Assembly: GCA_000004985.1 (NCBI GenBank)
Contig: GG738920.1
Length of the DNA: 64,000 bases
Source: Naegleria gruberi
Taxonomy: Eukaryota
Strand: one strand, 5' to 3'
The notes beneath the pieces were generated by a model that saw nothing but the letters and a program-made list of their open reading frames with translations, searched no databases and was not told the origin of the DNA. Position 1 is the stretch's first letter; each line of letters begins with the position of its first letter. Below are positions 2,822 to 58,700 of this stretch, one piece after another. The position numbers and the translations under genes are program-made.

Positions 2822-4993
2822 ATGAAAAGAAACCATTCTGAAAGCATACCAACTGCAAAAAAGCAAAAAACTGGCGAGAATAAATTTATTGAGAATGTGC
2901 ACTTGTCAGTCTCATTGGAACTTATTTCCGAATTTTATAATGTTAGCGAAAAAACATTCAAACCCTCAAAGTCCAAACTCCGAGCCATCCTAAAAAAACA
3001 TCAAGTGGCAAACATTAAGGAAATCGAAAATCTAAAACTTCCAGCCCATTTTACTTTTACAACAAAGAGGATGGAAACTATTTTTAAATATACCTTGCAC
3101 GGATTTGGTATTACACTAAACAATTGCCAAACAAATCCTCTATTCGAAGAAAAGAAGGAAACCATCGAGAATATTCTAAGTTTATTACTCTCCTATCTTC
3201 AGAGCTCTGATATTGTGAGCCTTATTGACAAACTGAAAAAGGAAGGGCTAGTATTGAACAGGAAATATGAAGATTACAAATATAATGTTGAAATGCCTCT
3301 AAATAGTGATACCCTCAGACTAAAAACAATAGATAATTTAATTTTCAGCTCAATTATCCCTCCATTTCGAGATTCTATAGATACTACAAGCGAAATGGAA
3401 CTTTCTAGATTGTATTTCACACCAATGCTTAGCTTTACCTCTATTTTTTCTGATTGCTCTGGTGGATCGTAAGTTTTATATTCTGCATGCTAACAATATC
3501 AATCAGAAATTCCAGTATTAAGGATTTTGTTCATGTGGACAGTTTGGAAGCCAATCTACAGACCAGTATTCCAGATTTTAGACCTGATGATTTTACGCTT
3601 GTTAGTTTTGGAACTAGTTTTAAATGTATTCGAATAATAAGAGAAGATTCACCAGACACTTATGAAAACCATACTAGCCACAAGGACTTTATTGCCCTCG
3701 TATCTCAGATGAAAATGGCACTGTCGCAGGTTATGAGAAAATTGATCAAGAAAGACATTAAAGACTGGCACAAACAAATATTAGTCATGGGTATCACATC
3801 TGATAGTGTTGCTTCAAATTTATACACCTTACATTGTCAACCAAAGATGAGAGATGATGACACCATTCTACTTTCAAATTTTACTCTCTCATTCATTGGA
3901 TCGTATCAGCACAATGTCGTTAGTGATCGCATCCAGCTCATTTCTAGAATTATGACATCTCTTATTTATCCAAAGAATGAGGAAGTAAGGAACTATTTAA
4001 CGACACAGCACAGCCTTGTACAGTCTACAAAAAGGAATTATTTTTCATTTCCTGTATGGGATAGTTATTTCCAAAGAATCGAATATGATAAGGATTTTGA
4101 AATAATCCAAACTCGCTCAACCATCAAAAAAGGGAAAATTAACGGTTTTGAGTATTTCATTAAGTTTAACTCTAAGAATAACATTTATGAAAGTCCTCAT
4201 CATTATTCCTTTTTAACACTATATGCTCCAACACTTCAGACGTCTGAAGGTAACTGTTCACTTACACTTGCTGGAAAAAGCATGGCCAAACTCTTTGAAA
4301 AGATGAACGAGATTAATGTTATGGATTTTTTTATTGATATGCTAGTTCAGCTCTGTTATCTACAGGAAGGAAACTTTGTTCATAATGACATCAAGCCAGA
4401 AAATATTGTTCTCTATGACAATCATTGGTTTTTAATTGATTTTGAAATTGCAAAAAGGTATTCAGACTTTGACATTAACTCTGGAAAATGCCTTGGTAAT
4501 GATGATAAACCTATCACAACACAGAGTTTCTCAGAAGGTACGTTTTTAAATTCATTATATTCTTATCGTTTCAGGCTACAGATCTCCTGAGAGAGTTGAT
4601 TACAATCTAGTTTCCCCAAAGAGTGATATCTATGCGCTAGGTTTAGTAATATTAGAGATTATTCATAAGGAAAGATTAGAATCTTTAGAAGACAGAGAGG
4701 TTGTTTCCCAATATTTGGAAGAAGCTAGAACCAGTGTTTCAGATGAAACCACTAAAGATATTCTGTCAATTCTGAAAAAAAAGATACTCAGATCAGAGAA
4801 AAATAGACTTGATGCAATTAGTTTGTACCATCATCTTTTTGTTTCAACTGAGAAGAATGTTAATCCAAAACTGGGTCATTTCCGTGAACAGTGCAAGAAA
4901 GTGAAATCGTATTTTGGAAATAAGGAGTATTTCTCCTCTCGCACAACCAAAGAAAGAAAGGTTGTCAGGACCCTTAGTTTTTCAGAAATGTGA
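2822..4993 (+). CDS. protein kinase-like (TKL-like) with N-terminal non-kinase domain. join(2822..3468,3507..4537,4575..4993).
   Basis: Catalytic-loop HNDIKPENIVL, DFE (DFG-like), and a C-lobe GYRSPE...SDIYALGLVILEI after the intron. Introns are GTAAGT...(TGCTAAC)...CAG of 38 nt and GTACGT...TTTCAG of 37 nt. Both restore one continuous frame across three track ORFs. The alternative acceptor at 3515 is also in frame. Confidence 0.6.
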
Positions 4994-5025
4994 ATTCAGT
5001 GAGATTTCACTCAATATTTAATTTA

Positions 5026-6174
5026 TTATTTAAATATTTTTTCAAAGTACCTTTTGACAGTCTTATTTTGAAATATTACAACAGACTTGAATGCACTACC
5101 CTGCCTTAATATGTTTGATCTGTAAATCATTTTCTCTGTTTCCTCTGTAATATATTGGGGTAACGTGTGATTACCATTAGGGTCTTTGATTAGCTCAGCA
5201 GCTTTCGTCATAATTATTTCTCTAATTTTGTTGGGTAATAAAGCGATTGTTCGTGTAATTAACTGATCAATAATTGTTTCTAAACAACGAAAGTCCATTC
5301 GCCCACCATTAGATTTGAGACAGTAGCGAGCATAGCCCAAATAGACAGCCTTTGTTCCAGTAATATCTAAAACTCTTGTTATGGTATCATTATTTGTGAG
5401 ATTCAGCTTGTTAAGATACTTTACTCCAAATTCATGCGAGGGTTCTAAAAGTTCTGTTGTCCACAATCTGCCGCCTGCTGTATCTAGACCAGTATAATAA
5501 CCATCAGAAATGACTATTAGCAACCCGACTTGGCGTTCTGTGTTTTCTCTAACCATGTCAATAAATTGTTCAGTTATTTTCCTGTTTCTATTTGCATTAT
5601 CAATGATTAAAATTGGACATTGGCCTTTCTGATTCTGATGAGCCAAGGCAATGAACTGATTAATTGCTAGTTGGATATCTGACCACCTTGCTTCATCATC
5701 AACAACTAAATTCATGAGCTTGGCCAACTCCTTAATTGTTGTTGTTTTGGAGAGACTTACCAACAAGTAAGGAAATGGTTCAAGTAATCTCAAACTCTCC
5801 TTCAGCATTGTTGTTTTTCCAATCCCACTCTCTCCATAAAATCCTCTCATACTCAACTCACAACGTTGCATTGATTTCAATGTGTTGGTGAATAAATCAG
5901 AGAATTCATTTGTAACAATAAAAGGATTGCTTTGGATTTGGGAAGAGTAGAAACTCTGATTCAATCTAGCAACATTATCAACAATCGGACTAACAGTTTC
6001 AACTTTTTTCTCTCTGGAATAAATGTTCGAGTTTAAGCCATTCAGTACTGCAACAATAAGCGATACAACACCCACCACAACAATTCCAACCTCTTTGTAT
6101 TGTTTTATAAATTTCTCTTTTTGCCTTTCCTCTTGCTTGATTACTTGTTGATTATCAGCACGAACGGTGGACAT
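5026..6174 (-). CDS. P-loop NTPase domain protein with N-terminal transmembrane anchor
   Basis: 382-aa ORF. Walker A GESGIGKTTM, Walker B-like hhhhDNA (ILIIDNA), and a hydrophobic segment at residues about 30-50. Confidence 0.45.
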   Translation of the reverse strand: MSTVRADNQQVIKQEERQKEKFIKQYKEVGIVVVGVVSLIVAVLNGLNSNIYSREKKVETVSPIVDNVARLNQSFYSSQIQSNPFIVTNEFSDLFTNTLKSMQRCELSMRGFYGESGIGKTTMLKESLRLLEPFPYLLVSLSKTTTIKELAKLMNLVVDDEARWSDIQLAINQFIALAHQNQKGQCPILIIDNANRNRKITEQFIDMVRENTERQVGLLIVISDGYYTGLDTAGGRLWTTELLEPSHEFGVKYLNKLNLTNNDTITRVLDITGTKAVYLGYARYCLKSNGGRMDFRCLETIIDQLITRTIALLPNKIREIIMTKAAELIKDPNGNHTLPQYITEETEKMIYRSNILRQGSAFKSVVIFQNKTVKRYFEKIFK

Positions 6175-6787: not shown

Positions 6788-8293
6788 TTAGCACTTTGCT
6801 CCATGGAACATGTATTCCATTCTTGCTTCATATAGGTCGTTTCTATATGTACATGTGTAGCCAGTTAGTTGAGCAACTTTTTTCGCAAATTCCTTATTAT
6901 CCATTTCTGCATTCCTAAGATCTAGCACATTATTGCTACTTATCCTGATTGCTTCCAATACAAAATCTTGAGAAAATCTCAATTCGTTTGTAATATATTT
7001 CAAAATTGGTTCAGTGGTTTCATTGATAATCTCAAACATGAATGGTGCACAACTTTTTAATTCATCAGGAACTCTAGTCAATTGTAATGCTGATTTTTTC
7101 ACAGCCTCTTTTACAACTTGTCTGTTCATCTCATGCTCAACAGGAATCCAATTCCCTCCCCTTATACTAATCAAAGCAAGTTCAACATCATTATTTCGTA
7201 AATCATCAGAAGCATACGAGTAAACAACGCTGTACTTCTCAATTGCTTTTTTCATAAAATCTCGATCACTTCTAATTCTCTCAGAAGCATAAGCAAGAGA
7301 GTGACAATGATTATTCAGTGCGCAAGTAACAATTTCGAAATCATCTCTGTATTCCTCATTGAGAAACTGAAGAGATAAACCATTCATCTTGACCATATGC
7401 ATAGCAATTTCTCTTTCGCTCATATGGTCCATCGAACTATCTTGTGCAATTTTACGAAACATTTTCATTATAAAAGAAGTATCATTCCTCAATCGTTCAG
7501 AAGCAAACATTAGAGCTGCCAAATCTGTTCGTGCAACAAGTTCAAATATATCCTCATCGTCCTGAAATGCATGTTCTAAATTTTCCAATATCCATGCATC
7601 ATTGCGTAATGCTGTGATTACTATCTCTCTATCATTCTGGAAATGATCAGGAGCTGCGAAAATGTCAACAGGACAAATCTCAACAGCTTTCAACACAAAA
7701 CTTCTGTCATTAATCAAAGATTTAGATAATCTACGCAATACTCCACCATCCTTTCCAATAAACTGCATATATTCAATTGCAAGATCCTCTCCAATATTTG
7801 CCAATCCTCCACAATCCTGAACTCTCTTTTTGATATCTTGATATTTTGAATTGGCGTAACTATTGATTGAATTAGTTTCTTTCTGGCAATTCTTAATATG
7901 ACATTGTAATTGTTCTCTAATGCCCAACCTAATCAGATCTGGATGAATTCGTGGTAATAGATATTCCAATGGGCTCACACCTCCAAATGAGCAAGTCGTT
8001 GTAATTAAATAACCATTGTTTACCAGTTTTGAAAACACTTTTTGAATAGTTTCTTCATCATTGGCATATTCAATAGGAAGATAGTACAAATCATGAACAA
8101 TAGTTTCCCTCCGAATCAGCCACTTTAACTTTCCCTCTTGTTGTGATGAGAATTTTTCTCTCAGCTTGTTCGATAGAAATAATAGTCGTACTAATGTTGT
8201 TGTTGTTGTTTTTGTTGTAGTAGATGAATGTTCATCATCATTATCATGAAAAGTAAAATGAACGAGAGATTTATCTGTAATGGTAATCATCAT
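6788..8293 (-). CDS. DUF4116 repeat-containing protein
   Basis: 501-aa ORF with repeated about 36-aa units (e.g. DREIVITALRNDAWILENLEHAFQDDEDI, DFEIVTCALNNHCHSLAYASERIRSDRDFM) typical of DUF4116. ATG at 8291-8293. Confidence 0.5.
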   Translation of the reverse strand: MMITITDKSLVHFTFHDNDDEHSSTTTKTTTTTLVRLLFLSNKLREKFSSQQEGKLKWLIRRETIVHDLYYLPIEYANDEETIQKVFSKLVNNGYLITTTCSFGGVSPLEYLLPRIHPDLIRLGIREQLQCHIKNCQKETNSINSYANSKYQDIKKRVQDCGGLANIGEDLAIEYMQFIGKDGGVLRRLSKSLINDRSFVLKAVEICPVDIFAAPDHFQNDREIVITALRNDAWILENLEHAFQDDEDIFELVARTDLAALMFASERLRNDTSFIMKMFRKIAQDSSMDHMSEREIAMHMVKMNGLSLQFLNEEYRDDFEIVTCALNNHCHSLAYASERIRSDRDFMKKAIEKYSVVYSYASDDLRNNDVELALISIRGGNWIPVEHEMNRQVVKEAVKKSALQLTRVPDELKSCAPFMFEIINETTEPILKYITNELRFSQDFVLEAIRISSNNVLDLRNAEMDNKEFAKKVAQLTGYTCTYRNDLYEARMEYMFHGAKC

Positions 8294-23488: not shown

Positions 23489-26023
23489 TTATTGCTTACA
23501 CCATTGATTAAAAGATTGCTCCTCCCTTCCGAATAATCCATGATCAAATCCATATTTGATAACTCTTTCAATTATTTCGGAAAATGTGCTGTCATCAGAG
23601 TAGTGCTCTAATTCACTCCATAACATTTCAAAGTTGTCCTTTCCAACGATGATTTGTTTCGATACAATGGGTATTAAATCTTTCATTTCGTGTTGGTGAG
23701 CTTTCTTGATGAGTGGAATTTGATGAATTGAGGGAACATAGTTCATGAATCCATAACAATATTGAATGAGATATTTCATCTCTGGACCATATTCTTCCAG
23801 TTCAATGGACCAATTTCCTTCGAATAGAGTTTCAAAGTAGACACTTCTCGAGATGAGAACTGTTTTGTGGCAATGAATTTTCTGATTTCCTACTAGGAAA
23901 CAAATATCACTGGTTGAGTGGTCATTGAATAGGTCCATTAGTGGTGATTTGGAAATATTGTTTGGCTTTTCTTCCCAAGTTACTGGTTTGATAGTTTTTC
24001 TCTTGATGATTAATCTCAAATACTTGTCAACTCTTTCATCAGTTTCAATAAAGAATTCGTATCCAGGTTCTGATGCCTGACTTCCCATGAAATCCAAACA
24101 ATAGTCCTTAATTTTCATCAAAGGAGAAGCTGCTGATGTTGATGAAAAGAATGAAGCATCTCTTGTGAGATAGCTTTCAATAGATTCCAGAATATCCAAA
24201 ACATTATCGAATCCAATTTTTGTAATCACTGATTGAATAATCATTGATTTCATGTAAATTAAATCTCCATGAGCTTGACCAAGTAAAAAGAGAATGCAAA
24301 GACTTTCGTCTGTATCCATATTCGATAATGTGGAATGTTTTTGATAGAGAATTTGATCCAAAATTCTCTGAACTATAGAGCATTCCTTCTCGTTCAAAGA
24401 GCTAATGAAATTATTATTCGAAATAACATTCTTATAGAAATTAGGAGTCATTCGTGCAAGAAGTGGTCTAAAGGCAATCAATCTATCAAATCTATCCATT
24501 TCAAGTTTCCGTACAGAAATATTATCTTCAAAGTGCCAATAATTTACTGCATCCGAAGCAAAATCTCTATTCATATGATCCACCAATGCCTGCTTTCTCA
24601 ATTCCTCCAAATCTATATTCTTCTTTTTGCAAATATTCAATATAATAGAGTCGACAGAAGCTTTGGCATGGAGCAGCAATTTGATAATGTTCCAATGCTC
24701 AAGAGTGCAAGCAATTAAAAGAGGTGTCTGTTATTATTGTGGTTGTTATGGTTGTGGTTGTTTGGAGAAGAGATGCAGTTGATGATGAAGACGGTTAATA
24801 GCGATGTTAAATTGTGTGGCAACTTACTTTCTGTGTTGTAGTGAGCTGTGCGTCAGTGTTGCTGAGATACTTACATACTGTGAAGTTGTGGAAATGTGTA
24901 AAAAGAACCAAATATTACAAATGCACTTACTATCTAAAAAAGTAAAGTCTAGACTGTTGGTGATGCGAAACTTACAAGCTGAAAAATGATAAGAACTTTA
25001 GTTTAGAGATTCCAAAGGAGCAACATACCATATTCATCTAAATTCCCAAAACCTTTTAACCATCAAACTTCATTGCTGGAATACTTACTGTCTGAGGCAA
25101 GTCAGTTAACACACAATATTTCAATATTGGTACTTACTTCCTATGTGTTGTGTAAGAATCTTTAAACTGTATCCAATACTTACATGCTGGCAAGAGTGTG
25201 AATTAATTGTTGCTCCAACCTGAATTACTACTTACCCACTATTAAAATAATGATTGATTATCCATTCGTTCCTAGCTGGTTAAAATAATCTACACTTACA
25301 TCGAACTATTCCATTTAGGATAAACTACATTAGTTATGGTGCCTACTTACAAACTGGAACAATGTGTGAAAATAATGGATTGGAATCTCTCTTAATACTT
25401 ACCCCTTGATTAACGTCTGTGCGATTACAATCTAACAACATTCTAACCAATTCTTCATTTCCTCTTTGACAAGAGACACATAGAGGTGTCTTTTCAAATG
25501 CGTTTGGAAATTTGATATCCAAAGTGTTTACTTACTTCCTATGAACGTGTCAATGAAATTTTAACTTCTGAATCACTTACTTCCTACAAGCACATAAGTG
25601 ACACAAGTGTTTCATCATGATCATCACAATAACTGATTAATAATTATGATTAGAATTAATTCACTTACCATCTAGATGATATTCAAGCTTTTACAACATT
25701 TTCGTTATCTAAATAACTTACAAACTATTTCAGAATGAGTTGACAAAATTCTTCTCAATACTACTTACTCCAATATTTGTATTTAAATGAGGAATCTTGA
25801 GTAAATTATCAACGAGTACTTCCTGTTCCTGTTCACAGGCCCAATATAATAATGTCTTATCCTGTAAATTCTTCAGTGGTTTATTAATCATCCATCTATC
25901 CTCCACAAGAGATGGCGGAAGTTTGCAATTCTCTAAAACCGATTCAATCATCATTAGACTATCTTCCCTCTGTGTCTCAGAAGCAGAAGTTGTGAACGTG
26001 GCCTGTAAAGTGGAGCTGTTCAT
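23489..26023 (-). CDS. ankyrin-repeat + BTB/POZ domain protein encoded by 3 normal exons and 14 microexons
   Basis: Exons on minus strand: 25769..26023 (M...KTLLYWACEQ...LNTNIG), then microexons 25722..24, 25669..71, 25581..83, 25536..38, then 25403..25489 (TPLCVSCQRGNEELVRMLLDCNRTDVNQG). Then microexons 25351..53, 25300..05, 25236..38, 25184..86, 25138..40, 25089..91, 24976..78, 24931..33, 24875..77, 24828..30, then 23489..24727 (TPLLIACTLEHWNIIKLLLHAKASVD... plus BTB DICFLVGNQKIHCHKTVLISRSVYFETLF). Every spacer is bounded by ct...acttac on the + strand (AG...GTAAGT on minus). Confidence 0.55.
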
Positions 26024-26460: not shown

Positions 26461-26531
26461 TGCATTAGCCGGGAGTCGAACCCGGGTCACCAGCTTGGAA
26501 GGCTGGTATGATACCGTTACACTACTAATGC
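26461..26531 (-). tRNA. tRNA-Gly (anticodon UCC)
   Basis: Reverse complement is GCATTAGTAGTGTAACGGTATCATACCAGCCTTCCAAGCTGGTGACCCGGGTTCGACTCCCGGCTAATGCA. It folds as a cloverleaf with anticodon loop CTTCCAA and T-arm GGGTTCGACTCCC. It is near-identical in layout to eukaryotic tRNA-Gly-TCC. No intron, CCA not encoded. Confidence 0.85.
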
Positions 26532-39771: not shown

Positions 39772-41332
39772 TTACTTGTGGTACTGCTTTAAGAGTGCTA
39801 TGATGTCTGATCTTCCTCGTTTTTGAGCTATTCTAATGAGATCTGTTTCTAAATCAATGGTTGGAAAGGTCAGTAAAAGTCGAACGATTTCGGTAAACCC
39901 CTTTCCACAAGCAACTCCAATTGGTGTCTTTGGTAATTCGGTAAATATTAACATATATTCGAATACTTACATGCTTTATATTCATTTGTTTAATAATTCC
40001 AATGAATTTCTACTTACTTCGTTTGGCTTTGAAATTGTTACAAAAATTGTAATCAGAGAAAAATGTAAACTTACACCATAGTTGATATCAACTCGTGGAT
40101 CTTTAACTAGTAATCGAACAATTTCAATGTGTCCATAATTACATGCTGCATATAAAGGAGCCTAAATTATTCATTTCCACATCTTACTGAACTTGTTAAA
40201 TTTACTTACATCCTTATTGACATCAATTGAAGGCATTTCCATGAGAATTTTAACAATTTCCAGGTGACCAAACATACAAGCTCGCGAAAGAGCAGACTGT
40301 TACTATTGTTATACACTCAATGTTTGAAAAACTCACTTTCTATTCGAAAAGTTTAGTTTCGAAAAATCTGAGAGAAACTTACTCCCTTATTCAAACTAAT
40401 TCCAGGAATTTCAAGTAACATTTTTACAATTTCCAAATTACCAGTCTCACAAGCTCCATACAGTGCACTCTTCAACTTTTTTATCATTTCCCTCTTTTAA
40501 AAACTTACATACTATTACAATAGTTACAAAAAACTGGAATTTCACTTACATTCTGAAAGAGTTGGAAATTGAGATACGGATAAATTACTTACTCCATAAT
40601 TGACTTCAACTCCTTTTGTGGAGAGTAATAGCTTGACAATTTCAGTGCGTTCAGTTGAACACGCAGCAAATAGAGGTGACTTGTAATTGGTTAATTGGTT
40701 TCGAATATTGTTTCCACTTACAAACTTAATTAGTTCAGGATAAATTACATGTATTTAAGAAAATACTCACATTCTGTAATATTAATAGAAATCCCAACTC
40801 CTATAAAAACTTACTCCAAGCTGAAATAGACAAAATGTCAAAAATCTCATTTCTAATAAAAAGGTAACTTACAGACTTTGAACTTTAGAAAGAAAAACTC
40901 AACTCAACCTACATGCTAATCAAACAGTTATGAAATTCACCCATTCCCATTCAAACACTTACTCCCTTATTGACATCTATTTTTGGAATACTCAAAATAT
41001 GTTTTACAATTTCAATTTTTCCGCAATGACAAGCTTCATATAATGGAGTCTTGTTTTTTCATTTGGAATTTGAGTTCTGATTGTGTTTGTCTTCAACTTA
41101 CAAACTATTTTGTATGTAAATTTTCAAGATTGTTATTCGAATCCTTACCATGAGCTAGATATGAGTTTCATTGGAAATTGAAATTATATTCGAAACAAAC
41201 ATTATTGGTTGTTGAACGAAACAACTTGATATCCTTTATGGATTGAACTTTTTTCAAGTCTCCATTTCCGATGGCATCAAACAAGGATATTTCCTCTTCC
41301 ATTGGTTCTTCCTTCCTTTCGACATTTGACAT
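39772..41332 (-). CDS. ankyrin-repeat protein (7 repeats) encoded by 87-nt exons interleaved with 3/6/9-nt microexons
   Basis: Minus-strand exons: 41201..41332 (MSNVERKEEP...), microexons 41149..54 (low confidence) and 41102..04, then 40963..41049 (TPLYEACHCGKIEIVKHILSIPKIDVNKG). Microexons 40913..15, 40873..75, 40815..20, 40771..73, 40722..24, then 40593..40679 (SPLFAACSTERTEIVKLLLSTKGVEVNYG). Microexons 40550..52, 40509..11, then 40383..40469 (SALYGACETGNLEIVKMLLEIPGISLNKG). Microexon 40337..39, then 40210..40296 and 40075..40161. Microexons 40018..26, 39971..73, then 39772..39927 (TPIGVACGKGFTEIVRLLL...). Confidence 0.55.
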
Positions 41333-43939: not shown

Positions 43940-45433
43940 TTAGTGAATAAATGTTAGATGACTATTGTGCTGATTTAACAGGCTTTCAATCTTTTCGAAA
44001 ACTTGAGAGAAGTGGAATGCTACTATACGGTATTTGGATTTGAGAGAGTTATACGCATGCAATTCCTTCCTCAGTAAATCGAGATAATTGATACCATTAT
44101 TGGTGATAATTCCACTATCCACTTTCTGCAAATGGTATTCAGCAGCATAAGAGACATGCAATAAAACTTCAAATGGTAAGAGTGAGAATCGAGGATGATC
44201 GAGAGATTGAGCAATGTAAAAAGCGCTCGCTTCAATAGAGAGTTCAATAATTGAAGATTTGGTAGTTTTTTTTGATAAGAGAGCAATTCTTGAGCCATTC
44301 TCTGCTAACCTATAGTAGAGGTCACTAAGCTCTGGATTTGTCTTGAATGGTGTATGTATTTTAGCTTGGGTGAGAATTAATTCGACCAGAGTCCAAACTT
44401 CCAAACAATTTTCTGAAGTAATTGGCTGTTTCAAACATGCATCCCAGCCAGCTGGCAAACTTGTACTATTAAATACAAATAAATCTGGAATAATATCAAG
44501 AAAATCTTCCACTGTCATTATTTGTTTCACATTTTGATCTACCTTGAAAACAATCTTCTCCAAATAAAATATTGCCTTCTTGACATTCAGTTGATATTCA
44601 TTGAGGGAGGCGTTAGGATTTTTAAATAAACTCTGCTTGAAAAAGAGTAAAATTCTAAAGTACAATTGTGCCTTATCAAGTCTCTCCTGTAAGAGTTCGT
44701 AAATGCACATGTGGAAATAGGCACCAGCAATATAGAAACTGGAATAATTAGCAAAAGAGTTAGAAAGATATCGTTTAGCAATACTGGCAGTCTCATCAGG
44801 TTGTTTTCCCTGTGTTATCTCACAAACAGTTTTGATTGAATAGAACAAGGCAGCCATTTCATTCATGAATGGTGTATCAAACTCTCCCTCAACCAGAGCA
44901 GAAATCTCCACAAACTTTTCCAATTCACTCCTCGATACGATGGGATGAGCAAAACAAGCCACTTCGAAATAAAAATCAACTATTTGCAATCGTTCACTTC
45001 TACTATTTACAATTTGATTAGAATTATTACTTTCGGGACTGCTATTTGATGAAGATGACGAAGATTTAATTGTTTGTTGTTCGGGTGGTGTTGATAATGA
45101 AGCTGATGATGATTGTGGAGGCTTTTGAAAAGGAAAGGTAAACATTGGAAAGCCTTGTTGTTGTTGAAATTCTTCCTGATGATGATGAGGAGTTGGCACT
45201 ACTTTCATAACAGTCATCATTTGATCCATTTCTTCATTATTCCTCTTTTTCCTCTTACCAGAACCATAAATACACTCAACACCTCTCATGACACACGAAT
45301 AACAACTTGGTTTTGTTTTGCTACATCGACGATGCTGGGACCTGCAGAACTGGCAGGAAATAGAAGAGACTTCTACTGGATTAAATTGTTGTTGTTGTTG
45401 TTGTTGCATTTTTTCTCTTACTATTAATAACAT
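43940..45433 (-). CDS. Zn(II)2Cys6 (GAL4-type) fungal zinc-cluster transcription factor
   Basis: CQFCRSQHRRCSKTKPSCYSCVMRGVEC fits C-x2-C-x6-C-x6-C-x2-C-x6-C. PolyQ N-terminus. Alternative ATG at 45409 (MQQQQQQQ). Confidence 0.65.
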   Translation of the reverse strand: MLLIVREKMQQQQQQQFNPVEVSSISCQFCRSQHRRCSKTKPSCYSCVMRGVECIYGSGKRKKRNNEEMDQMMTVMKVVPTPHHHQEEFQQQQGFPMFTFPFQKPPQSSSASLSTPPEQQTIKSSSSSSNSSPESNNSNQIVNSRSERLQIVDFYFEVACFAHPIVSRSELEKFVEISALVEGEFDTPFMNEMAALFYSIKTVCEITQGKQPDETASIAKRYLSNSFANYSSFYIAGAYFHMCIYELLQERLDKAQLYFRILLFFKQSLFKNPNASLNEYQLNVKKAIFYLEKIVFKVDQNVKQIMTVEDFLDIIPDLFVFNSTSLPAGWDACLKQPITSENCLEVWTLVELILTQAKIHTPFKTNPELSDLYYRLAENGSRIALLSKKTTKSSIIELSIEASAFYIAQSLDHPRFSLLPFEVLLHVSYAAEYHLQKVDSGIITNNGINYLDLLRKELHAYNSLKSKYRIVAFHFSQVFEKIESLLNQHNSHLTFIH

Positions 45434-55712: not shown

Positions 55713-58700
55713 CTAATAGAAATAAGAATTATCCATTCCTTCTGTCCATGAATCCACTTCTGAACATGTTGATTCTACTTCTGATTCATCTCCAGTCAAG
55801 TCATACAAGTCATCATCATCATTATAATTCTCATCATATTCTCCTTCACTATTTTCTTCAAGATTTTGAATTTCTTCATCCGAATCCACTCTAATTTCCT
55901 TCTCTTTCGTAGCAATCATTACCAGTTCCTTAAAGTTTATCCACCCAAAACTGAAAATATTGAACTGATTTTTCTCTGTATGAGTAATGTAATACCAGGC
56001 AGAGGCAATTGCCAATCGCTCACTCTCCCCATATTTCCTTACCATCTCTTCGAAAACATTCCTAAAATGTTTCAGGTAGAATGAAATGGTGATTGCAATG
56101 GTTTCGTGAATATCATGTTCCTTATGTCCAAAGCATTTGATATTGGTATTAATCCAACCTGAAATAATTTGTGATTCGTCCTCAACGCCATACTTTACCA
56201 TATCCGAGTTGACAAATCTACTGTAATTGTAATAATGTGGCTCTATTTCCTTCAAGTACTTGTCAAATCCGTCAACAATGAGTAATGAATTGTGCTTTTT
56301 GTTGCATTTTCCTGGTGTTTCATGTTTGAATTGTGTTTCATCAAATAGTTTTCCAAGCACTTTTTTAGACTTGTACTTTCTTTTCATAGAAGAAATCATA
56401 AAGTGTGGATATTCATATAATTTGACCTTTGATGGAATGATTGCAAATTTACCACTCTTGGCACTGTCTACAGCTGTTGAGTGAAGCTCACAAAGTGTTA
56501 AACATTCCTTCGATGTTAAACCATTTTTTCTAAAATCAGAATTAGCCAAATGAGTATTGGCAATCAATCCAAGATTATTTCTCGTAATAAACTCTATGAA
56601 AAAGTCTATAATATCATCTTGCTTAATCTTGTATTCTTCTTCCTCCTCGTCTTTTTTGTTTGTTGGTTTGGCTACAGCTCCAACTGAATAGTCCATTGGT
56701 TCAGAATCTGATTCAGGAATCAAGTCTGGATCCCAATAGACAAAAAATTGATCACCATCAAGATCTGAGCCTGTTATCATGTTTGTTATTGGCCTTTTTC
56801 CTTTCTTAGAAAATACCACAACATCATTTAAATGGTAAAGTTCTGGACGATCGACTGCTGTTACTATTCTCAAATCACCTTTATGTAGAGAAGGGTTCTT
56901 TCCAACAATACATCTTCCCTTAACTACTCCAAATTCAGCATTAGGTCTATGAAAGATAGGTGATAAATTAACAAAGATTTCATTTTCCTCCAAAACTCCA
57001 TACTCATCAATGGCTCCCATTAAATACGCTGATTTCTCAATATATATTTTAGTCTTGTCTCGTAATCCTTTCAATAATTGTTCCTTATATGAACTCAACA
57101 TATTCATGATAAAATTTTCTGATGTTGCAATTTCTGGTACATATTTAAGAACATGGCAAATAAATGTCCTTGTATGGTTGGAATGGTAAATCGACAGCCA
57201 TTCATAGGCCTTTGAGACATCGTCTGTTATACTAAGAATGGAACGTATCATTTCTCTCTGTTTTGTCATGAATATTTCATCCTTAATTCCAAGTGCTGTC
57301 AAAATTGTTATGAATTGTCTATTCAAAAATCCACTTCTCCTCTTTGAGTAATCCACAATTTCCAATTGTTTCTGTATTGAGGTAAATTTGAATTGACTCT
57401 TTCTGAAAACTATTTGTTCTCCTTTTAAAGTTGGATCTATTGCTAATACTCCCTTTCCTCCTCCACATCTAAATTGAATAGCTGATAGTAATGATTCTCC
57501 TAATTGAAGCTTTTCCTTTACTCGTTGCATCATTTCTTCACTTATCTTTCCAATACCATCTGTAAAAGTGAATCCATTTCTTTCAATATCTTCAACTGGT
57601 TCAATATCTTTAGTAATTTCAATTGATGGAGTTGTACTTGTTAAGCATTGTCCAAATCTTGCTGCAACCTTTGCAGGTGTTTTAATGTCAGTGAAATCTC
57701 CCATATAATCGAATGTCCTGTGGTGATGGTTTCAACTTGTTGTAATCTCTGAGGAAAAACCAACTTGACGAATTTCTTAATTGTGAAGATGAAAATCCAA
57801 GAAATTCCAATCGTTTCATGTCAGTAATCATTATACCTCTACTCATCAGTTGCTTGATACGATTGCTAATATTTCTGAACTCACTCGCGAACAGATTATT
57901 GAAATTATCATCTAAGAAATTAACTCTAAAAAAGTTTTCTCTACTTCCCCACTTTTTATCGGCGTATCTGATGACTAGATTTGTTTTATCAACCTCAGGA
58001 GGTAAAAAGTAAATCTTGGTAGGTGTTACAATGACCTTTTTGCACAGATTCACCTCTTGTGCAGAGTCTCCCTGCATTAATATAGAACGACTCATTTGTA
58101 ATTGGTAATCTTTTGAATTTAAATACGTTTCAATAGTTTCTTCCAAATTGTAAACTCTACTTGGATACTTGATTAAATAGTCAAAGTAAATCTTTTCCAA
58201 AAGGGTTCCCATTTTGATTTTGTACTCGTTTGATTCGTCTCCTTTTAACAATTCGAAAAATTTGTCACTATAATTGCATGGACTGAAAATACCATGACTT
58301 TCTAATACCAATAAATAATATTGAATATTGTAAAAGTCAAGTTTTCTAATCTTTTCCAAAGAGGAGTTTGAAATTTCAAACTTCTTGTGACAGAAATCAA
58401 TACTTTTGATTGGAACTGCCTCTATTTTCTCTTTCAATAACTCAAACAATTTTGGTATCTGCTTTTTGACATCCTGGAACAAACTCAATTTCAGTAAAAA
58501 CACCTGAGTAAGTCCAATGTCTTCAAAAAGAGTATTTGTTTCTTTGCAAATCCTTGCACGTGAGGTTGTTTTAAAATTTTCCATATACTGTTGTTCCAAC
58601 ATGAGTGGAATATTCTTTGATTCCAATTCCAAGAAGAATTTTCCAACAATCTAATTCCATTCTTAATAGTTGCCAAATTGAATCTTAATTCAAATAACTT

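Follow-up and report, generated by a model that had tools for sequence, protein, structure and literature searches.

Two ankyrin genes in a 64,000-nucleotide (nt) stretch of Naegleria gruberi DNA (contig GG738920.1 of assembly GCA_000004985.1; this whole stretch is called the window below) carry, between their ankyrin-repeat exons, chains of segments of mostly 3 nt that are each enclosed by an acceptor and a donor splice signal. We consider it likely that these chains are true GT-AG spliceosomal introns lying head to tail, that the one-codon exons between them are translated, and that the chains grew by tandem duplication. Specifically, we propose that the chains would consist of Naegleria introns of normal size (about 40-60 nt), separated by exons of one, occasionally two or three, codons, and that the spliced-in codons would add 0 to 11 residues to individual loops between ankyrin repeats.

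The first of the two genes, gene A, encodes an ankyrin-BTB protein on the minus strand. Its frame begins with an ATG at 26023 and ends with a TAA stop at 23489. Two regions break it up, 25768..25490 and 25402..24728, where the hexamer GTAAGT occurs once per 45-113 nt. When every AG|NNN|GTAAGT is taken as acceptor, exon, and donor, the result is a model of 17 exons, with 16 introns that range from 42 to 110 nt and a frame that is open over 541 codons. A sequence-only reading of this DNA had described three conventional exons and 14 micro-segments in this pattern, with introns of 42-110 nt between them; we see the same arrangement on the minus strand, where 13 micro-segments have 3 nt and one (TTCGAT) has 6 nt, with AG directly before and GTAAGT directly after each of them, and all 16 measured introns fall in that range. 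The parts of the gene are as follows, all on the minus strand and based on the exon model unless another basis is given.

23489..26023, gene A, ankyrin-BTB protein, 17 exons, 541 amino acids (aa) with every micro-segment spliced in (exon model and translation, Pfam, homologs in N. lovaniensis and metagenomes)
25769..26023, exon 1, 255 nt, 3' end ...NTNIG|GTAAGT
25490..25768, chain 1, five introns (in order 44, 50, 85, 42, 46 nt) and four 3-nt exons
25722..25724, microexon TTT (F), seen as AG|TTT|GTAAGT
25669..25671, microexon ATG (M), seen as AG|ATG|GTAAGT
25581..25583, microexon GAA (E), seen as AG|GAA|GTAAGT
25536..25538, microexon GAA (E), seen as AG|GAA|GTAAGT
25403..25489, 87-nt exon encoding one 29-aa ankyrin core (TPLCVSCQRGNEELVRMLLDCNRTDVNQG) (exon model; Pfam Ank HMM positions 3-30 of 33)
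24728..25402, chain 2, eleven introns (in order 49, 45, 61, 49, 43, 46, 110, 42, 53, 44, 100 nt) and ten micro-segments
25351..25353, microexon TTT (F)
25300..25305, 6-nt microexon TTCGAT (FD)
25236..25238, microexon TGG (W)
25184..25186, microexon CAT (H)
25138..25140, microexon GAA (E), matching E/D microexons in relatives (model and alignment)
25089..25091, microexon ACA (T), matching G microexons in relatives (model and alignment)
25029..25037, uncertain candidate 9-nt microexon ATGAATATG (MNM), seen as AG|ATGAATATG|GTATGT, with which the 110-nt intron would become two of 51 and 50 nt
24976..24978, microexon CTT (L), a Leu codon in each of the three species compared (CTT/CTT/TTG) (model and alignment)
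24931..24933, microexon ATA (I), an Ile codon in each of these species (ATA/ATC/ATC) (model and alignment)
24875..24877, microexon TAT (Y)
24828..24830, microexon AAA (K)
23489..24727, last exon, 1239 nt, with the final ankyrin core, a family-specific region, and the BTB domain (model, Pfam, homologs)

Spliced across chain 1, the model reads ...AATATTGGA-TTT-ATG-GAA-GAA-ACACCTCTA... in DNA and ...NIG-FMEE-TPLCVSC... in protein; across chain 2 it reads ...AATCAAGGG-TTT-TTCGAT-TGG-CAT-GAA-ACA-CTT-ATA-TAT-AAA-ACACCTCTT... and ...NQG-FFDWHETLIYK-TPLLIAC..., so that both linker peptides named in the earlier reading are reproduced within the 541-aa frame. The microexons make up 45 of the 1626 coding nt, and the remainder lies in conventional exons. 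Pfam assigns Ank_2 (58 bits) and Ank (42 bits) to the product and BTB/POZ (PF00651) to residues 394-488 (43.7 bits, cut-off 20.5). About 440 nt upstream of the gene A start codon, on the same strand, there is a tRNA-Gly(TCC) gene (26461-26531).

The second gene, gene B, encodes an ankyrin-only protein and has the same architecture. It consists of a first and a last exon, five 87-nt exons that each encode one 29-aa ankyrin core, and eleven micro-segments, of which two have 6 nt, one has 9 nt, and the rest have 3 nt (two of these with a GTGAGT donor). Its introns have 38-52 nt, with one exception of 87 nt, and neighboring ankyrin cores are linked by 0, 1, 2, 4, or 5 micro-segment-encoded residues. 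The sequence-only reading had referred to 87-nt exons that each encode one 29-aa core; there is only one such exon in gene A, and there are five in gene B. With the microexon residues included, Pfam gives gene B an Ank_2 score of 134 bits, and its exon stretches are 100% identical to P0124, a 148-aa entry named "predicted protein [Naegleria gruberi]". The 5' end is the least certain part of the model, since the first intron (41155-41200, minus strand) would have the non-consensus donor GTTTGT. The parts, again on the minus strand and taken from the gene model, are listed below.

39772..41332, gene B, ankyrin-only protein, 18 exons, 255 aa, ATG at 41332 and stop at 39772
41149..41154, 6-nt microexon CTCATG (LM), donor GTAAGG
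41102..41104, microexon TTT (F)
40963..41049, 87-nt ankyrin exon 1 (model and ankyrin-core pattern search)
40913..40915, uncertain candidate microexon CAT with a GTAGGT donor, which would split the 87-nt intron into 47 and 37 nt
40873..40875, microexon TCT (S)
40815..40820, 6-nt microexon CTTGGA (LG), also in the JGI model P0124
40771..40773, microexon AAT (N), donor GTGAGT
40722..40724, microexon TTT (F)
40593..40679, 87-nt ankyrin exon 2 (model and ankyrin-core pattern search)
40550..40552, microexon AAT (N)
40509..40511, microexon TAT (Y)
40383..40469, 87-nt ankyrin exon 3 (model and ankyrin-core pattern search)
40337..40339, microexon AAA (K), donor GTGAGT
40210..40296, 87-nt ankyrin exon 4 (model and ankyrin-core pattern search)
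40075..40161, 87-nt ankyrin exon 5, separated from exon 4 by a lone 48-nt intron without a microexon
40018..40026, 9-nt microexon CCAAACGAA (PNE)
39971..39973, microexon CAT (H)

The splice-signal motif is concentrated in these two genes to a degree that shuffled sequence does not reach. AGNNNGTAAGT occurs 22 times in the window, every time on the minus strand, compared with an expectation of 0.97 ± 0.99 from dinucleotide shuffles, none of which (0 of 100) reaches 22. Thirteen of the occurrences lie in gene A and nine in the gene B region 39970..41106, where three of the nine are mere ends of 87-nt ankyrin exons (AAG GGA|GT or AAG GAT|GT). In the six-frame translation, a search for the ankyrin-core pattern hits genes A and B only; both of these genes have chains, and no other gene of the window has any. 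For example, the flotillin-like gene at the start of the window has three ordinary introns and no chain.

The modeled introns themselves have the features of ordinary ones. All 33 introns of genes A and B start with GT and end with AG, 30 of them start with GTAAGT, none has a G at acceptor position -3, and 29 of the 33 have a length of 38-61 nt; ordinary introns in unrelated genes of the window have about 38-85 nt and the same donor as the chain introns. The 25 micro-segments have 3, 6, or 9 nt without exception (no other length and no segment of zero length), all are bounded by AG and GT, and the spliced frame is open in both genes. Among their 30 codons there is no stop codon, which is only weakly significant alone (P about 0.07-0.12), and no 3-nt microexon of either gene begins with GT. 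The sequence-only reading had held that all spacers are multiples of three, with a chance probability of about (1/3)^14. This holds for the lengths of the micro-segments and fails for those of the introns, and the probability is invalid since the motif is defined by its 3-nt spacing and duplicated units are not independent.

In pairwise comparison, the cores of the 33 introns are no more similar to each other than shuffled sequence. Therefore, the conserved hexamers are not a remnant of recent duplication. Intact splice signals amid randomized intron sequence instead indicate selection on each site, and argue that each site is used.

How such chains might be spliced can be outlined as follows. 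Each chain intron would be recognized individually via intron definition. With only 3 nt between an acceptor and the donor that follows, neighboring spliceosomes would overlap, and sequential removal is therefore probable. Each splicing step would then add one codon to the upstream exon, and the following NNN|GTAAGT would serve as an ordinary 5' splice site, in effect a ratchet with a one-codon footprint, and the near-invariant GTAAGT donor would offset the absence of exonic context.

Comparison with related loci bears on whether the codons are translated. A HMMER search with the last exon of gene A found two N. lovaniensis proteins, and we compared their genomic loci. At the first (C9374_005517, locus L124), the last ankyrin exon is preceded by GGA TCT|GTAGGT and then by the microexons GAT, GAT, GGA, CTT, ATC, and GTT, followed by introns of 49-68 nt; at its paralog (C9374_008811, locus L125), the corresponding position has the microexons AGA and GCCAAG. 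A contig from run SRR29240419 (L001), the protein of which is 59% identical to C9374_005517, has GAA, GGA, TTG, ATC, and TCG. Between L124 and L001 the last exon has 76% nucleotide identity and the flanking exon 59% aa identity, and the five matching introns are 53-60% identical, compared with 55-59% for shuffles. The microexons, in contrast, keep their order and read D-G-L-I-V in L124 and E-G-L-I-S in L001, with three of five residues identical, as in the flanking exon; the Leu microexon is CTT in one and TTG in the other. Gene A aligns with both loci without a gap as H-E-T-L-I-Y-K-TPL, with Leu as CTT and Ile as ATA (ATC in both others), an alignment of the form E-x-L-I that the candidate ATGAATATG microexon would break. 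Under a null model that draws triplets according to the composition of the local introns, three or more of the five residues would be identical with a probability of 0.002, and three-way identity at two or more of the five positions would arise with a probability of 0.0002, for a sample of five codons from one set of related loci without established orthology.

Synonymous and conservative codon changes across species point to a coding constraint rather than to a constraint on splice signals. As such, the comparative data make it very likely that the micro-segments are present in mRNA and translated, the main weakness being the small number of codons. They also lead us to conclude that the chain architecture would be older than the split of these Naegleria lineages. 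Altogether, the earlier proposal of one-codon exons between separately spliced introns appears to hold at the level of sequence, given the normal intron size and donor, the retained splice signals, and the conservation of codons between species.

The position of the chains in the protein is consistent with this. They lie at phase-0 boundaries of ankyrin-repeat exons, between "...DVNxG" and "TPL...". The 87-nt exon covers positions 3-30 of the 33 positions of the Pfam Ank HMM, and the positions left out form the turn, or hairpin, between repeats. It follows that the inter-repeat loop would be encoded by the micro-segments, as the sequence-only reading had suggested. In gene A, the four extra residues of the first linker lead to the canonical 33-residue ankyrin period, and the Ank_2 score rises from 44 bits without the microexon residues to 58 bits with them.

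Several observations weigh against our interpretation, in addition to the small codon sample. A steric clash may arise where strong splice sites are separated by as little as 3 nt. The branch-point motif yTrAy, which may not be the Naegleria consensus, is found in 10 of the 33 chain introns, compared with 10.3 ± 2.6 in shuffles. A set of 5.8 billion proteins contains no transcript-derived protein that matches spliced gene A or B. The microexon residues are rather hydrophobic and have AT-rich codons (F, I, Y, K, L), as for weakly selected sequence, and loop length varies from 0 to 11 microexon-encoded residues in the two N. gruberi genes. Traces of tandem duplication are found in two loci described below (L003 and L022) and not in the window, whose chain introns share no similarity. 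The Pfam comparison has the opposite outcome in gene B, which scores 160 bits for Ank_2 without the microexon residues. Finally, the protein structure does not require the extra residues, as gene B has one repeat junction that lacks a microexon.

The last two of these points, together with the fact that the form with all microexons skipped is also in frame in both genes, speak for non-productive internal sites. The 279-nt and 670-nt regions of gene A would then be removed whole, or all microexons skipped, and the mRNA would encode 29-aa repeats. We find this very unlikely. Introns of 279 and 670 nt would lie far beyond the range of about 38-110 nt in the window, and their removal as single introns would ignore four to ten perfect GTAAGT donors with matching acceptors. 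Moreover, the splice signals are conserved while the remaining intron sequence is randomized, and conservation of microexons at the amino acid level, with synonymous changes, would be senseless for sequence that is always discarded.

Another alternative accepts that the microexons are used and assigns them a different role, namely that the chains serve mainly to create diversity, with stochastic or regulated skipping of one-codon exons giving families of in-frame isoforms with varied loops. Since all units have lengths divisible by three, the frame is kept whichever of them are included, and skipping one unit would produce an intron of about 90-100 nt, which is inside the range of the window. 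Loops are also variable in the family: at the junction that leads to the last ankyrin exon, N. gruberi has 10 microexons, the two N. lovaniensis loci have 6 and 2, L001 has at least 5, and L003 has 2. In addition, the loops of ankyrin domains are the usual ligand-contact surface. Diversity as the main role nevertheless seems quite unlikely to us, as a strong consensus donor at every unit favors constitutive use, conservation of the G-L-I residues suggests a defined product, and exon skipping is generally rare in intron-defined genomes with short introns (PMC6142364, which cites the N. gruberi RNA-seq dataset PRJEB23822). In its strongest form, which we regard as unlikely, independent choice of 10 one-codon exons would give up to about 1000 in-frame isoforms, a combinatorial generator of ankyrin finger loops in which the array could evolve by minisatellite-like gain and loss of cassettes. 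If true, this would be a somatic, splicing-based diversification of a binding surface in a unicellular eukaryote.

Returning to our preferred reading, its account of how the chains grew draws on a locus where the process left traces. A metagenome contig with a 36%-identical homolog (L003) has, before its last ankyrin exon, the series GGA|intron|AGA|intron|AAA|intron. Its first two introns differ by one mismatch in 44 positions, and Tandem Repeats Finder reports a period of 47 (44 + 3), 2.6 copies, and 96% matches. This array is a recent tandem duplication, or a homogenized array, of a cassette of one codon and one intron. Separately, positions 1-60 of the contig are an inverted copy of the adjoining intron/microexon repeat, probably an assembly fold-back, which makes the true number of 47-nt copies uncertain.

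A second locus is a metagenome contig (Ga0307507_10005984, L022) that is fungal-like and has a GC content of 45%. At 4560-5900 on the minus strand, downstream of a P-loop GTPase-like coding region, it carries about 18 consecutive units of 3 nt plus an intron of 63-76 nt, which can still be aligned and have a GCTGAC/GCTAAC branch region in common. Judged by these features, it would be a convincing independent case of the architecture, outside ankyrin genes and outside Heterolobosea. Its microexons vary strongly at positions 1-2 and almost always have T at position 3. We rejected diversifying selection on them, since positions 1-2 match and do not exceed the most variable intron columns.

From these loci, we propose the following route. 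A small tandem duplication of a whole intron plus 3 nt would create the cassette of one codon and one intron, whose copy number would then rise through unequal exchange, as in a minisatellite. A duplication is tolerated only if the added exonic length is a multiple of three, and the smallest such unit is an intron plus 3 nt, hence the uniform 3-nt spacing. Segments of 6 and 9 nt would be later fusions via precise intron loss, or would reflect other offsets, and old arrays would have lost all similarity except for the selected splice signals and some codons. A tandem-duplication origin of the old, diverged N. gruberi arrays is what we infer by analogy. The earlier suggestion of a lineage-specific intron-gain mechanism is supported by the tandem array of L003, in which units of 3 nt and a 44-nt intron are 96% identical, and would extend to the arrays of the window by that same analogy. 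Microhomology as the source of the exact 3-nt offset (AG in AAGGGA; GAGTA in L003) was considered and rejected, as the unit lengths do not fit.

The same arrays could have originated differently, through the insertion of introns between existing loop codons, by reverse splicing or by an introner-like element, without any added codons. An E/D-x-L-I peptide in three species with one intron after each residue is the pattern expected of codon-by-codon insertion, and the chain introns of N. gruberi lack mutual similarity. This origin is in our view rather doubtful, with a minor but real chance of being correct. It is opposed by the 96%-identical repeat of codon and intron in L003, which lies in the same family and at the same junction, and by the long array of still alignable units in L022. 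We also saw no common element sequence or terminal repeats among the 33 introns, with terminal repeats and target-site duplications not specifically tested. Furthermore, the loop sequences of an intronless homolog (P0253) are unrelated.

We scanned metagenomes for the pattern GTAAGT-N-AGNNNGTAAGT-N-AGNNNGTAAGT, with low-complexity filtering applied afterwards. Most matches (loci L004-L123) were microsatellites of the (AAGT)n type, many of them probably from termite-gut metagenomes judging by contig names, and after filtering L022 was the only convincing analogue. The dominance of microsatellites means that a low-complexity filter is needed in any genome-wide scan for the motif. Among the rejected candidates, L025 is a chance match to a bacterial 63-nt intergenic tandem repeat, L099 is a 24-nt minisatellite, and the arrays of L010, L089, and L123 are short and ambiguous. 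The L025 repeat has six copies with GTAAGTACTAAC at 2970-3300, between cysteine-synthase-like and methyltransferase-like genes. Tandem repeats that resemble GTAAGT, including (AAGT)n arrays and the bacterial 63-nt repeat, do yield false positives, which is what can be said for viewing the chains of the window as a decaying minisatellite or a pseudogene with chance splice-like motifs. We consider this extremely unlikely, because the chains of the window are not repetitive, the long frames are intact, the ankyrin and BTB domains are conserved, homologs exist in several species, and the chain architecture is conserved between species.

Chains of this kind appear to have misled gene prediction. 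The N. gruberi reference for gene B, P0124, is mis-spliced and truncated, with most micro-segments skipped: its end is read from the intron that follows ankyrin exon 4 (...DVNKD|VSKFNKFSKMWK*), and its pieces "YLK" and "LYVNKG" are not contiguous in the DNA. In N. lovaniensis (GCA_003324165.2), the NCBI models C9374_005517 (L124 5001-7066) and C9374_008811 (L125 3001-4658) translate parts of the chains as exon, with the read-through linkers "SKLNNYNISHPNRESYVFIRKNMVDSRLTLAPLQVY" and "TTVSGYHHQQRKKYCKVFTESKWSYNFTSRVYKDEQAK". At L125, two introns and a microexon make up 102 nt without a stop codon, so the read-through remains in frame. As all three inspected reference models (one from N. gruberi and two from N. 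lovaniensis) are wrong, the chains seem to have gone unnoticed. Ankyrin-family proteins in these genomes, possibly including that of the pathogen N. fowleri, may thus be mis-predicted and intron counts too low.

If RNA data bear them out, the chains of gene A, with 4 and 10 minimal exons in a row and 16 introns in 2.5 kb, would exceed all known runs of such exons in length. They would mean that an intron-defined spliceosome repeatedly and accurately uses an acceptor and a donor 3 nt apart, which would constrain models of splice-site pairing, steric exclusion, and order of removal. Tandem amplification of an intron plus one codon would, in addition, be a concrete and still active route of intron gain. 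Since this amplification lengthens loops residue by residue, it would tie intron gain to protein evolution, in a genus often used for inferring the intron content of early eukaryotes.

The window has 33% GC and is gene-dense. The exon identity of gene B to P0124 marks it as N. gruberi or a near-identical strain; Acrasis kona, with a GC content of 38% and without matching proteins, was rejected as the source. The window also encodes DUF4116, F-box, LRR, Zn2Cys6, and RNA-dependent RNA polymerase (RdRP) proteins. Two paralogous DUF4116 repeat proteins with six repeats each lie at 6788-8293 and 61603-63198, and a Zn2Cys6 "fungal-type" transcription-factor domain lies at 43940-45433, all on the minus strand. 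A eukaryotic RdRP frame of 663 aa (55713-57704, minus strand) has its best match in N. lovaniensis (45% identity), and no N. gruberi protein is among the matches. The RdRP and gene A loci may be unannotated in the N. gruberi reference proteome; gene A likewise has no N. gruberi entry.

The sequence-only reading had called runs of one-codon exons undescribed, and in the open-access full-text literature we likewise found no description of such chains. The closest known exons are ultra-short ones. Drosophila homothorax has one of 3 bp (PMC7392893), plant APC11 and VPS55 have exons of 1 nt (PMC8831610), and human RPS24 has three microexons in succession, of 3, 18, and 22 bp (PMC12207440). Exons of 1 nt and 3 nt in plants and Drosophila have been validated by RT-PCR or RNA-seq (PMC8831610, PMC7392893). 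The chains resemble these in having exons of 1-3 nt with full splice sites, strong GTRAGT donors, and a preserved frame, and in being routinely missed or wrongly modeled by annotation. However, known ultra-short microexons occur singly or two to three in a row, usually between long introns, and are often alternatively spliced, whereas in the Naegleria chains 4 and 10 (possibly 11) follow one another with minimal introns of about 45 nt in between. Several genes, all of one repeat family, have such chains, and an entire loop is coded codon by codon.

The chains also resemble recursive splicing, as at the ratchet points of Drosophila and the recursive-splice exons of vertebrates (PMC8797253), in the stepwise 5'-to-3' removal and in a 3' splice site that adjoins a 5' splice site. 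Ratchet points have the form AG|GTAAGT, a zero-length exon from which a 5' splice site is regenerated and of which nothing is left in the mRNA. In the Naegleria chains there is a 3-nt gap, one codon would be retained per step, and the introns are minimal rather than pieces of a very long intron. Because a step keeps one codon and does not regenerate a 5' splice site, the chains fall outside the class of recursive splicing; the earlier image of a ratchet that leaves one codon behind is a fair one for sequential splicing and does not apply in the classical sense.

With tandem-duplication models of intron gain, the chains share the principle that a duplicated segment with splice signals yields extra introns, and in L003 and L022 the repeat unit is a complete intron. 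Intron gain via tandem duplication or from tandem arrays has been reviewed in PMC3488318 and PMC2586383, and Drosophila cases are given in PMC2891723; Zhuo et al. (2007) is cited in these papers. In the classical model, an exonic AGGT segment is duplicated and produces one intron. The Naegleria unit would instead be an entire intron plus exactly one codon, amplified many times and fixed, with similarity outside the splice signals lost; recognizably similar neighboring introns with a constant period are present in L003 (period 47) and L022 and absent from the window.

The micro-exon genes (MEGs) of the animal Schistosoma encode small secreted proteins, and the bulk of their coding sequence lies in symmetric exons of 6-36 nt between long introns. 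Common to both systems are runs of symmetric, frame-preserving tiny exons, the skipping of which could vary the protein. The Naegleria chains differ from MEGs in having mostly 3-nt exons and minimal introns, in being confined to the loops of an intracellular-type repeat protein, and in belonging to a heterolobosean. Introner elements, which are transposon-like introns (PMC3488318, PMC12768974), are comparable in that many introns are gained in one lineage; they form dispersed families of similar sequence, whereas the Naegleria chain introns form local arrays that share splice signals only. Altogether, the chains are best classed as a variant that combines microexons, tandem intron gain, and stepwise splicing.

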